Sequence record: NC_031050.1
Length of the DNA stretch: 51,802 nucleotides
From: Escherichia phage vB_EcoS_NBD2
Strand: one strand, 5' to 3'
The notes beneath the pieces are model-generated. The model was not told the DNA's origin, did not search any database, and saw only the letters and a program-made list of their open reading frames with translations. Positions 2,956-16,045 of this stretch are shown piece after piece. Made by a program: the position numbers and the translations under genes. Numbering within the stretch: the stretch's first letter is position 1; every line of letters begins with the position of its first letter.

Positions 2956-3333
2956 ATGAAACGCATTAAAGTTAAATGCCTGGCAGTTGACCGTTACATT
3001 TCCGAGTTTTACACCCCTGGCAAGTGGTACACCCTGGAAGTTATTGAAAAGCTGGATATTGCCCAGCAGACCCGCGAGATTCCAACCGATCGCGATGGTT
3101 GCTCACTTCGTGTTAGCCGTGAGCGCGGCGACAATTACCGCTATCGTGTTGCGGGCTATGAAGGCACGCTGTTTGACTCGAAGCCGTGGCGCTTCCGCAA
3201 GAAGAATCATTTTTGCGTTGATATCGACTACAGCAAATGCGCTCGCTCAATCCGTCGCCAGGCTCGCAACGTAGCCAAAGAGCTTTATTCGTGCGGCAAT
3301 CTGGAGAAGATCGCGCGCAGCTATGGAAAATAG
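2956..3333 (+). CDS. hypothetical protein
   Basis: 125-aa ORF, RBS aagga. Confidence 0.55.
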   Translation: MKRIKVKCLAVDRYISEFYTPGKWYTLEVIEKLDIAQQTREIPTDRDGCSLRVSRERGDNYRYRVAGYEGTLFDSKPWRFRKKNHFCVDIDYSKCARSIRRQARNVAKELYSCGNLEKIARSYGK

Positions 3334-4413: not shown

Positions 4414-5004
4414 ATGACTATTCAACGATACACAATGCGAAGTGTAAATGGAGAGCCTGAAATGGTGGCTCACGGCGCAGGGGCGTATGTAACCTACGCA
4501 TCACACGCCGAAGAATTGCTCCGCGTACAGGGCGAATTAGACGCCTTAAAAGACGGCTTAAAACGTCAAATTTTCGCGCCACTTGAAAAAGCCATGATGA
4601 ATGCGCTTATTAAAACAGCAATGCAGGCAACGCATACCGTCTACACCGTCAACCCATGCGACAAGCTGACTTCCGAGCGAGTGCGTGAAATTATGGATGC
4701 CCAGATCGGAGCGGGGGTAATCAGCCTGGCGGAAGTTGAAGAGCGCGGTTTCGCAACTGGCGGATTTATGGCAATCCCAATAACACGACCAGATCCAGAA
4801 TCCCTGCTTTGCATCAAATCGGACGCCAAAAGCTTCAAGGCTGGAGAGTCTTACCAGTGCGAGGCCAACAAAGACGGCGCTTTGTTCGTAACGCAAGATG
4901 AATTCGTTTCCGATCTGAATGAAGATGATTACTGGCACGTCACGGACGGCGGCGCGTATTACATCGTCGAAACGATCGCGGGTAATGCCTACTTTAAGAA
5001 GTAG
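4414..5004 (+). CDS. hypothetical protein
   Basis: ORF 4372..5004 trimmed to ATG 4414 after RBS aacgagg; preceded by motif promoter. Confidence 0.55.
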   Translation: MTIQRYTMRSVNGEPEMVAHGAGAYVTYASHAEELLRVQGELDALKDGLKRQIFAPLEKAMMNALIKTAMQATHTVYTVNPCDKLTSERVREIMDAQIGAGVISLAEVEERGFATGGFMAIPITRPDPESLLCIKSDAKSFKAGESYQCEANKDGALFVTQDEFVSDLNEDDYWHVTDGGAYYIVETIAGNAYFKK

Positions 5005-5044
5005 CACTTTTTGTTAAACGGGCACGTGTGCTGACTGGTATCAT
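5002..5044 (+). promoter_or_regulatory. motif promoter (TAGCACtttTTGTTAAAC, 22 nt, TGgTATCAT)
   Basis: Motif 5002-5019, extended -10 5036-5044. Confidence 0.55.
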
Positions 5045-5075
5045 GTGCCCACACCAACCAAATGGAGAGGCACCA

Positions 5076-5705
5076 ATGAATGCACTTTACAGCCATATCA
5101 AGCGCCACATTGAGCAGCGCCCGAACAAGCCAGTTTTCATCTTTGACTTTGACGGCACCTTGTCTGACGGATCGCACCGCCTGGACAGACTGCCAACCGA
5201 AAACCTTCACCTTACTGAATCATGGCAGGAGTTTAACGAGCTTTCGGCATTTGATGCGCCGTTTGAGGACACCATTCAGGTGATGAAGGCTTGTTATCAA
5301 TTCGGCACCGTCATTATTTTGACAGGCCGCAGCGATTCGGTGCTTAATCTTTCCGTTCAATGGTTGCTTGACAATGACGCTGATTATTATGATTTCCTGG
5401 TGATGCGCGAGGCAACCGATAACCGAAAAGACACGATCATCAAAGAAGAGTTTTTGCGCTTCATTGGACTTCATCGCATTACCGCCGCCTGGGATGATAG
5501 CCCGAAAGTTATCGAGCATTTCCGAGGCCTGGGCATCACAACTTATCAGGTTTGCGACTACGGCGACAACGTTCACGCTGGCTTGAAGTCTCACGGAGTA
5601 AGCGAGCTTAAGGCGGAGTGCGATCACATCTGGGAGCGTCACAGCACTGGTGACGATTATTATGATTGCTGCGTCAGTTGCGGCAAATCGAAGGGGATTA
5701 AATAA
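5076..5705 (+). CDS. HAD-superfamily phosphatase (nucleotidase or polynucleotide 3-prime-phosphatase-like)
   Basis: HAD motif I FIFDFDGTL near N-terminus; ORF 5028..5705 trimmed to ATG 5076 after RBS ggagagg. Confidence 0.6.
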   Translation: MNALYSHIKRHIEQRPNKPVFIFDFDGTLSDGSHRLDRLPTENLHLTESWQEFNELSAFDAPFEDTIQVMKACYQFGTVIILTGRSDSVLNLSVQWLLDNDADYYDFLVMREATDNRKDTIIKEEFLRFIGLHRITAAWDDSPKVIEHFRGLGITTYQVCDYGDNVHAGLKSHGVSELKAECDHIWERHSTGDDYYDCCVSCGKSKGIK

Positions 5706-5707
5706 CA

Positions 5708-6325
5708 ATGGCAACCATCATCATTTTGAACGCGCCACCGCGCGCGGGTAAAGACACGATCGCGAGCATTATCAATGAGCAATACGGCTTGCAGGTTGTG
5801 AGCTTTAAAACGCAGATGTTCAACATCGCTCGCGCCATCCTGGGCGGCGCTGATTTCGAAAACCCATTCATGCGGGTTTACAATACCGACGAGAAAGACA
5901 CGCGCAAGCTTGATTGCCTGGGAGGGATGACTTGCCGCGAGTTCATGATCTGGATTAGCGAAACCATCGTGAAACCGAAGTTCGGGAAAAAGCATTTCGG
6001 CTGGCTTATGGCTGACCTTCTCACCGAAATGGAAGCAGATCAGGATCTGACGATTTGCAGCGATGGCGGATTCCCTGACGAAGTGGAGGCGCTTATTGAT
6101 TGCGGTCACAAAGTCAAGCTGGTACGTATGCACCGTGAAGGCTTCGACTTCGGCAATGATAGCCGCGATTACATTAATCTTTCGCCGGAGTATCTCGCGA
6201 AGCCTGGCGTTGAGGTTATGGATCTTAAGTTGCAGCACGGCTCGCCGCAAGATGCAGCCGATACGATCGCCGCAATGTTCGTGCGCCCTCATCATGTCGA
6301 TTGGTCTGATGATATTCCCTGGTAA
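5708..6325 (+). CDS. deoxynucleoside monophosphate kinase-like P-loop kinase
   Basis: N-terminal P-loop NAPPRAGKDT resembling the T4 gene 1 dNMP kinase P-loop (SGKDT); 2 nt after the phosphatase stop. Confidence 0.55.
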   Translation: MATIIILNAPPRAGKDTIASIINEQYGLQVVSFKTQMFNIARAILGGADFENPFMRVYNTDEKDTRKLDCLGGMTCREFMIWISETIVKPKFGKKHFGWLMADLLTEMEADQDLTICSDGGFPDEVEALIDCGHKVKLVRMHREGFDFGNDSRDYINLSPEYLAKPGVEVMDLKLQHGSPQDAADTIAAMFVRPHHVDWSDDIPW

Positions 6326-6326
6326 A

Positions 6327-6369
6327 TAGCACTTTTTGTTAAACCCTCTTCGGAGGGTTTTGTTATAGT
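6327..6369 (+). promoter_or_regulatory. motif promoter overlapping a terminator hairpin (22 nt, TATAGT)
   Basis: Motif 6327-6344, hairpin CCCTC-ttcg-GAGGG 6344-6357, -10 6364-6369. Confidence 0.55.
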
Positions 6370-9423: not shown

Positions 9424-9511
9424 GGAAGGATGGCAGAGAGGACGATTGCGCGCGGTTGCTAACCGTGAAGCCGGAAACGGCTCAAGGGTTCGAATCCCTT
9501 TCTTTCCACCA
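9424..9511 (+). tRNA. tRNA-Ser (anticodon GCU), class II with long variable arm, CCA encoded
   Basis: Hand-folded cloverleaf: acceptor GGAAGGA/TCTTTCC (one G-U), U8, D-stem GCAG/TTGC, anticodon stem CGCGG/CCGTG, loop TTGCTAA (U33, GCT, A37), variable arm GCCG-gaaa-CGGC, T-arm AAGGG-TTCGAAT-CCCTT, discriminator A, CCA. Confidence 0.8.
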
Positions 9512-9524
9512 ATCAGAGGGTTAC

Positions 9525-9713
9525 ATGATGGTTTATTCTGTGAAGCTTACGATCCTGTTAATGGGCAGGACTTGCGCATCATGTAAGCAAGAATTCAGTT
9601 GCAGAGTTGAGGCCGAAAGCGAGCAAGACGCAGTGACGAAAGCAAAGGCACTTTCTGGAGCCGATCCAGATTTCAATAAATTTCTCGTTAACTATGTAAG
9701 GGCTAAAAAATGA
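9525..9713 (+). CDS. hypothetical protein
   Basis: ORF 9456..9713 trimmed to ATG 9525/9528 because the upstream part overlaps the tRNA; RBS agaggg. Confidence 0.45.
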   Translation: MMVYSVKLTILLMGRTCASCKQEFSCRVEAESEQDAVTKAKALSGADPDFNKFLVNYVRAKK

Positions 9714-16017: not shown

Positions 16018-16045
16018 TTGACCGTTTAGCAAAAAGTGCTATTAT
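16018..16045 (+). promoter_or_regulatory. strong promoter for major capsid gene (TTGACC-16-TGcTATTAT); contains motif dyad in inverse orientation
   Basis: -35 16018-16023, TG 16037-16038, -10 16040-16045; TAGCA-aaaag-TGCTA at 16027-16041. Confidence 0.6.

Follow-up and report, generated by a model that had tools for sequence, protein, structure and literature searches.

Escherichia phage vB_EcoS_NBD2 is a T1-like coliphage of the Drexlerviridae. We discuss here two adjacent genes of its early region, open reading frames (ORFs) A and B, in a stretch of 51,802 nucleotides (sequence record NC_031050.1) that we call the window and to which all positions refer unless another locus is named. ORF A encodes a stand-alone phosphatase of the HAD type assigned to the 3'-phosphatase clade of T4 Pnkp, and ORF B a compact P-loop kinase with the fold of the T4 gene 1 product (gp1), a deoxynucleoside monophosphate (dNMP) kinase. 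Catalytic residues are conserved, the phosphatase precedes the kinase wherever the two were found together in our locus survey, and natural fusions of the two proteins exist. The reading that we favour, with about even confidence, is that the pair makes up an early unit of two genes that would support nucleotide salvage from degraded host DNA. By their sequences both genes fall into known families, and public records already carry loose annotations for them; the module of phosphatase and kinase, conserved and at times fused, is an observation of modest novelty.

The phosphatase

ORF A (5076..5705, plus strand; ATG at 5076, TAA at 5703-5705) encodes 209 amino acids. A first-pass annotation of this DNA had recognized a HAD phosphatase from the motif FDFDGTL, placed at residues 22-28, and the profile searches that it proposed for both proteins bear out this recognition. 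ORF A matches the Pfam model HAD_PNKP (PF25109) with 56.9 bits against a cut-off of 27.6 (E 3.4e-15) over profile positions 3-139 of 143, and phrog_415 at 1e-59. The profile of the ORF A family, run against the PDB, found bacterial Pnkp1 at 1e-14 and T4 Pnkp at 5e-8, and hhalign aligned the family with residues 138-297 of T4 Pnkp at 97.4%, the T4 sequence used having been checked as identical to 1LTQ. ORF A has the fold of the T4 Pnkp phosphatase domain.

HAD motif I, D24-F-D26-G-T28 (5145..5159, plus strand), occupies invariant columns in the alignment of ORF A homologs. D24, D26, T83, K123 and D140-D141 correspond to Asp165, Asp167, Ser211, Lys258 and Asp277-278 of T4 Pnkp and are all invariant, as are R85 and D119, which align with Arg213 and Asp254. 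In T4 Pnkp, Asp165 acts as nucleophile and Asp167 as general acid/base, and the enzyme acts on 3'-phosphorylated oligonucleotides and also on 3'-dNMPs, 3'-dTMP being hydrolysed at 24 per second (PMC3592404). ORF A is thus assigned, by homology, to the T4 Pnkp 3'-phosphatase clade and not to the generic HAD enzymes. Its expected chemistry would be the removal of 3'-phosphates from DNA or RNA ends or from 3'-dNMPs, as opposed to a generic dephosphorylation of nucleotides, and to this extent the phosphatase of the earlier description is refined.

No N-terminal 5'-kinase domain of the T4 Pnk type is present in ORF A, the alignment covering T4 Pnkp residues 138-297 only, and the label 'polynucleotide kinase' is therefore a misnomer. 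The protein is 100% identical to the public record 'putative polynucleotide kinase/phosphatase' of vB_EcoS_NBD2, and for ORF A-type proteins in general, which hold the phosphatase half only, the first part of such a name is misleading.

The AlphaFold model and motif counts among homologs delineate a C-terminal Cys/His module, C182-x-H184 ... C199-x-x-C202 (5619..5681, plus strand). In the model, a disordered linker (residues 161-180) is followed by a three-stranded beta module (residues 186-207) with a predicted local distance difference test (pLDDT) score of 80-86. The tail is probably zinc-ribbon-like, with a putative role in metal binding. Of 120 homolog representatives, 27 carry it, four of them in duplicate; the tail can for this reason be regarded as accessory.

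The kinase

ORF B (5708..6325, plus strand; ATG at 5708, stop at 6325) encodes 205 amino acids. The first-pass annotation had placed a kinase 2 nt after the phosphatase, and the gap between the ORF A stop, which ends at 5705, and the ORF B ATG at 5708 is indeed exactly two bases (CA). The N-terminus of the protein, IIILNAPPRAGKDT, forms a Walker A loop of the GKDT type as in T4 gp1: residues N8-A-P-P-R-A-G14-K15-D16-T17 (5729..5758, plus strand) align with gp1 G8...G13-K14-D15-T16, and N8, G14, K15 and D16 are invariant across 117 diverse relatives of ORF B.

The resemblance to gp1 had first been seen at the N-terminus alone; it spans the whole of ORF B. When the 117 relatives were compared by hhalign with a gp1 family of nine phage sequences, the two aligned at 96.6% (E 5e-10) over 177 columns, joining ORF B residues 3-191 to gp1 residues 2-238; against gp1 alone the value was 94.8%. 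The T4 member of the gp1 family was the gene 1 record X03016.1, which the gp1 sequence used as query matched at 100%. Both the broader ORF B alignment and the gp1-family profile were needed to reach full length, the shallow comparison of close ORF B relatives with the single gp1 sequence giving 35 N-terminal columns at 54%. In a control comparison with the kinase domain of T4 Pnkp only a 26-residue Walker A segment was aligned, and no homology to that domain was found beyond Walker A, including the Asp35/Arg38 region. The structural matches of ORF B are headed by gp1 (1DEK), and 1LTQ lies outside the top 60.

The dNMP site of 1DEK comprises Lys37, Arg68, Arg132, Met135, Asp175, Arg177 and Glu181, and Arg197 belongs to the ATP site (PMC10653934 Table 2). 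Arg132, Met135, Asp175, Glu181 and Arg197 correspond to R77, M80, D119, E125 and R143 of ORF B. Among the 117 relatives, R77 and E125 are invariant, D119 is Asp in 116 and R143 is Arg in 107; position 80 is variable (Leu in 56, Met in 45, Phe in 10). The invariant K34 lies about one helical turn from gp1 Lys37. We consider ORF B to be gp1-like in its fold and as a distant homolog. A kinase of prophage origin, for which 1DEK serves as modelling template, provides dTMP kinase activity in vivo (PMC10653934).

The ORF B family is large, with 3,695 clusters at 50% identity and 1,447 phage records. ORF B matches phrog_139 'dNMP kinase' at 3e-40, and one of the 117 relatives matches the Pfam model of phosphomevalonate kinase. 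Searches of the PDB with the single ORF B sequence and with its HMMER profile returned generic P-loop matches only, neither gp1 nor Pnkp being among them. Public labels for these kinases range over ATP-binding protein, P-loop NTPase, phosphomevalonate kinase and dNMP kinase, and the roughly 3,700 clusters of the family are essentially missed by the Pfam DNMK model.

Linkage of phosphatase and kinase across phages

An ORF A-type phosphatase was sought within 4 kb of the kinase in 79 IMG/VR viral loci that carry the latter. It was found in 34 of them, in every case upstream and on the same strand. The phosphatase abuts or overlaps the kinase in half of these loci (17), and in the other 17 the two are 640-1,512 bp apart with small ORFs between them, an arrangement also seen in phages PHB17 and TLS. 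Abutting pairs are found in unrelated lineages as well: in Kagunavirus K1ind2 the pair comes after a 'DNA repair exonuclease' gene, and in Ahp1, a member of the Autographiviridae, it comes after genes for exonuclease and endonuclease VII (homology confirmed by BLASTP in both). Stop codon of the phosphatase and start codon of the kinase overlap in three unrelated phage lineages.

The two proteins are also found fused. Three clusters (P0257, P0387 and P0266), located on phage-like contigs of 45-61 kb, share a layout of an N-terminal HAD_PNKP domain with the signature of the ORF A subfamily, a linker of 70-110 residues and an ORF B-type kinase. The possibility that they are read-through artefacts was considered and rejected in view of their mutual identity of 37-74%, the length of the linkers and the occurrence of P0257 on three contigs, one of them a phage-like contig of 60.8 kb. 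Order, strand and fusions together constitute good evidence for a functional coupling of phosphatase and kinase.

The kinase occurs without the phosphatase in the remaining 45 of the 79 loci, which indicates that its function is self-sufficient. An ATP-dependent DNA ligase gene is its neighbour in 23 of these 45 loci, 5'-3' exonuclease genes are found there as well, and in Vibrio phage MGD2 the kinase abuts the DNA ligase. In nine kinase-only loci (L045, 2735-3931, and eight similar ones) a protein of about 398 residues is encoded 67 bp upstream of the kinase. Metallophosphoesterase-like motifs can be discerned in it by eye, no Pfam model matches it, and it may represent a third type of phosphoesterase partner.

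Both genes are also encountered separately in contexts of deoxynucleotide synthesis. In the rV5-like Escherichia phage PMBT16 (L006, 3495-4696), a homolog of the kinase is immediately followed by a HAD 5'(3')-deoxyribonucleotidase of the NT5C family, and then by thyA and nrdA. This is a second, independent pairing of kinase and HAD enzyme, in the opposite order. The T4-like phage GEC-3S (L017, 2498-2974) carries a stand-alone ORF A-type phosphatase (36% identity) in its nrdA-nrdB operon. The start of this additional gene overlaps the nrdB stop, denA and rnlA lie downstream, and the phage already possesses gp1 and Pnkp.

Proposed nucleotide salvage and alternative functions

Phages T1 and TLS break down the chromosome of the host, whose nucleotides they use again, and they have no DNA polymerase of their own; T1-like phages draw the material for their DNA largely from this source, and the enzymes behind the recycling have not been identified (PMC11447400). 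The ORF A/ORF B pair is a reasonable candidate for part of this pathway. In the proposed scheme, ORF B would most likely use ATP to convert 5'-dNMPs released by nucleases into deoxynucleoside diphosphates (dNDPs), from which the host nucleoside-diphosphate kinase would produce triphosphates (dNTPs) for replication by the host polymerase, T1-like phages having none. ORF A would pass through an intermediate in which D24 carries the phosphate as aspartyl-phosphate, D26 serving as general acid/base, and would most likely clear 3'-phosphates from 3'-phosphorylated DNA fragments, from nucleoside 3',5'-bisphosphates (pdNp) or from 3'-dNMPs. Its products could then serve as substrates for exonucleases and for the ORF B kinase. 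As to substrates, a coupling of the reactions and a role in salvage, this scheme is a proposal drawn from homology and gene context. It is favoured by the relationship of the kinase to gp1 and not to Pnk, by its independent occurrence, by the thyA/nrd/NT5C and nrdAB contexts (the latter near denA), and by the nuclease genes directly ahead of the pair in K1ind2 and Ahp1. A part in deoxynucleotide supply, which the first-pass annotation had suggested, is thus the best-supported reading, given the PMBT16 and GEC-3S neighbourhoods and the reuse of host DNA by T1 and TLS.

Several observations weigh against salvage, however. The ORF A model has almost no cap, motifs I and II being separated by just two short helices, and in HAD enzymes a near-capless fold and a zinc-ribbon-like tail lean toward macromolecular substrates. 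Fusion and a strict phosphatase-then-kinase order likewise characterize end-healing enzymes, mammalian PNKP among them, more than enzymes of the nucleotide pool, and the frequent proximity of podophage kinases to DNA ligase (23 of the 45 kinase-only loci) fits nick repair too. On the side of the kinase, the Pfam model DNMK (PF21448) reaches 14.3 bits with ORF B, below its cut-off of 27.1, over residues 4-27 only, and a single relative out of 117 attains it at E 3e-5. Arg177 of gp1, which contacts both the phosphate and the base of the dNMP, is Gly121 in the ORF B family; opposite gp1 Arg68, 105 of the 117 relatives have Arg and NBD2 has Asp61; a position that is Lys in 116 of them is Asp64 in NBD2; and some 40-50 residues of the gp1 helical domain are absent. 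These four features imply that the acceptor site of ORF B differs from that of gp1. Finally, we infer every substrate for both families in the Drexlerviridae.

The Asp61/Asp64 change (5888-5899; ORF B residues 61-64) is common to NBD2 and Klebsiella phage KLB19; Klebsiella phage HazelMika retains the Asp-Arg-Lys version. It may have altered the specificity of the kinase in the NBD2 lineage or reduced its activity.

The alternative that survives best, although we regard it as rather unlikely, is that the pair constitutes a split polynucleotide kinase-phosphatase in reverse order. ORF A would heal 3'-phosphate or 2',3'-cyclic phosphate ends; ORF B, a protein of the nucleoside monophosphate (NMP) kinase fold recruited as 5'-kinase, would phosphorylate 5'-OH DNA or RNA ends, and a host or phage ligase would reseal the nicks produced by host defence nucleases or arising during replication. 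A Pnkp-clade phosphatase with all its catalytic residues, a Cys/His tail and a near-capless fold suits this role, as do the fusions in the order phosphatase-kinase and the collinearity kept in 34 of 34 loci. The same holds for the ligase that abuts the kinase in MGD2 and is the commonest neighbour in kinase-only loci, and for an acceptor site without two phosphate-binding arginines of gp1, next to a trimmed helical domain. The kinase itself argues otherwise: it matches the T4 Pnkp kinase domain over the Walker A loop only, its structural matches place gp1 first and 1LTQ outside the top 60, and the general base Asp35 of Pnkp has no aligned counterpart, the invariant K34 being found there, as Lys37 is in gp1. 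Several dNMP-contact residues of gp1 are moreover conserved in ORF B, the kinase stands alone in 45 of 79 loci and accompanies thyA, nrd and NT5C genes in large myophages, and no RNA ligase or other ligase is annotated in the HazelMika genome, which is collinear with the window.

A bolder proposal, unlikely in our estimation, regards the pair and its rare fused form (P0257, P0387, P0266) as an as yet undescribed bifunctional enzyme class. This could be a non-orthologous Pnkp whose 5'-OH kinase has the gp1/NMP-kinase fold, or a channelled two-step enzyme that makes dNDPs directly from nucleoside 3',5'-bisphosphates or 3'-phosphorylated fragments. If so, the trimmed helical domain and the two missing gp1 arginines would reflect a changed acceptor.

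More doubtful is the view that two functionally independent genes happen to share an early operon, the kinase topping up dNDP pools and the phosphatase having an unrelated task, such as the removal of a signal molecule that is small and 3'-phosphorylated, or an action on RNA. Each gene can indeed be found on its own, the kinase in the 45 loci mentioned above and the phosphatase beside nrdB in GEC-3S, and small ORFs separate the two in PHB17 and TLS. Such independence is hard to reconcile with fusion proteins in three clusters on independent contigs, with an order and strand invariant in 34 of 34 loci, and with the overlap of stop and start codons in three unrelated lineages.

The further idea of the first-pass annotation, that the pair could handle modified nucleotides and thereby hint at non-canonical bases in the DNA of the virion, finds no support and is very improbable. 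It draws on general analogy only: T4 gp1 phosphorylates hydroxymethyl-dCMP (PMC10653934), and 5-HMUDK is one of the phage P-loop kinases involved in thymidine hypermodification (PMC5889632). 5-HMUDK always co-occurs with a dUMP hydroxymethylase of the thymidylate-synthase superfamily and requires a glycosylase-fold enzyme alongside (PMC5889632). Neither the window nor the collinear HazelMika genome contains a homolog of hydroxymethylase or thymidylate synthase, a glycosyltransferase, a glycosylase-fold enzyme or deazaguanine genes, the only DNA-modification genes being Dam and C5-cytosine methylases. The identification of ORF B as a 5-HMUDK-type hypermodification kinase was rejected on this gene content and not on a direct sequence comparison with 5-HMUDK.

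Probable transcription unit and genome setting

With hundreds to thousands of homologs, neither ORF A nor ORF B can be considered a chance reading frame. An antisense ORF of 211 amino acids (5660-6295, minus strand) overlaps ORF B almost wholly and is longer than it, and naive longest-ORF calling selects it over ORF B. Since all homology evidence lies in the plus-strand frame, we treat the antisense ORF as a shadow frame. Ribosome-binding sites were read directly from the sequence: GGAGAGG (5064..5070, plus strand) for ORF A and, within the 3' end of ORF A, AAGGGG (5691..5696, plus strand) for ORF B.

A promoter-like element upstream of ORF A (5004..5044, plus strand) consists of the 16-mer GCACTTTTTGTTAAAC (5004-5019), a 19-nt spacer and the -10-like hexamer TATCAT (5039-5044). 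The next copy follows ORF B (6329..6369, plus strand), with its 16-mer at 6329-6344 and TATAGT at 6364-6369. In the spacer of this second element sits a terminator-like hairpin, AAACCCTCTTCGGAGGGTTT, followed by a T-rich tail (6341..6366, plus strand; hairpin 6341-6360), which a terminator scan described as eight pairs with a 4-nt loop. Bounded in this way by one copy before ORF A and by another copy and a hairpin after ORF B, the two genes can be delimited as a discrete two-gene unit.

The 16-mer occurs nine times in the window, against 0.07 copies expected by chance; the aligned copies keep the same 19-nt spacing to the -10-like hexamer, and every one is oriented toward downstream genes. Extended to ATA-GCACTTTTTGTTAAAC, the copies lie at 3333, 5004, 6329 and 37508 on the plus strand and at 16024, 43544, 47516, 49317 and 51182 on the minus strand, and each is followed after about 19 nt by TATAGT, TATCAT, TATTAT or CATAAT. 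A conserved leader, CATCGAAACGAAAC or CACACCAACCAAA, comes after the promoter-like elements. The repeated element probably represents the early promoter consensus of the phage. A simple sigma-70 promoter scan of the window, whose counts were at background level, did not call it, and for sigma-70 the distance to any -35 of the TTG type would be unusually large.

The closest annotated relatives of NBD2 in the phage collection are members of the genus Vilniusvirus. Protein identity between the window and the collinear HazelMika genome is mostly 94-100%; the early region with ORF A and ORF B is more divergent (75-78%). The annotated kinase start of HazelMika (L002, 3970-4641) lies 21 codons too far upstream and overlaps the phosphatase gene, the conserved Met being residue 22. 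In KLB19 (L001, 1928-4067) the pair is partly duplicated in tandem: a phosphatase without the Cys/His tail is followed by a kinase copy without the P-loop N-terminus and the C-terminus, a phosphatase fragment (residues 70-176) and an intact kinase. The duplication may be genuine or may stem from the assembly. In the window, a tRNA-Ser gene (anticodon GCT; 9424-9511, plus strand), present in related phages too, is overlapped by an ORF of 85 amino acids (9456-9713). The published literature on NBD2 concerns its tail tube protein only, and nothing was found in it on the ORF A and ORF B genes.

Comparison with known systems

The phosphatase domain of T4 Pnkp/PseT (PDB 1LTQ, 5UJ0) and bacterial Pnkp1 (4XRP) are the known counterparts of ORF A, which differs from them in being a stand-alone protein without the N-terminal kinase domain of the T4 type. 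Its insert between motifs I and II is 12 residues longer and bears the invariant signature HRL..LP...HLTESW.EFN, the Cys/His tail is an optional addition, and the partner kinase is encoded by a separate downstream gene and belongs to a different kinase family.

For ORF B, the closest known system is the T4 gene 1 dNMP kinase (PDB 1DEK/1DEL), of which T5 Dnk is a broad-specificity relative. Identity to gp1 is only 14-19%, below the threshold of the Pfam DNMK model. ORF B is about 36 residues shorter and lacks much of the gp1 helical domain 2, and the replacement of Arg177 by Gly in the family and of the Arg68-aligned residue by Asp in NBD2 sets its acceptor site apart.

Mammalian PNKP places a HAD-type 3'-phosphatase before a P-loop kinase, the same order as in ORF A/ORF B and in the fusions P0257, P0387 and P0266. 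Its kinase domain is, however, of the T4 Pnk type with a catalytic Asp, whereas ORF B is gp1-like, and PNKP has in addition an FHA domain. No PNKP kinase appears in the top 60 fold matches of ORF B.

T7 gene 1.7 offers a parallel of another kind. It encodes a phage dNMP kinase that feeds nucleotides derived from host DNA into replication, and it follows the ligase gene 1.3, just as in podophages a DNA ligase gene is often found no more than about 1.3 kb away from the ORF B homolog. As gp1.7 has no P-loop and is unrelated to ORF B in sequence, the likeness is positional and functional only. The thyA/nrdA cluster of PMBT16 comes nearer to the gene pair itself, with a kinase of the ORF B family (32% identity) beside a HAD-superfamily phosphatase. 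There the kinase precedes the phosphatase, and the HAD partner belongs to the capped 5'(3')-deoxyribonucleotidase family (PF06941) and not to the Pnkp clade.

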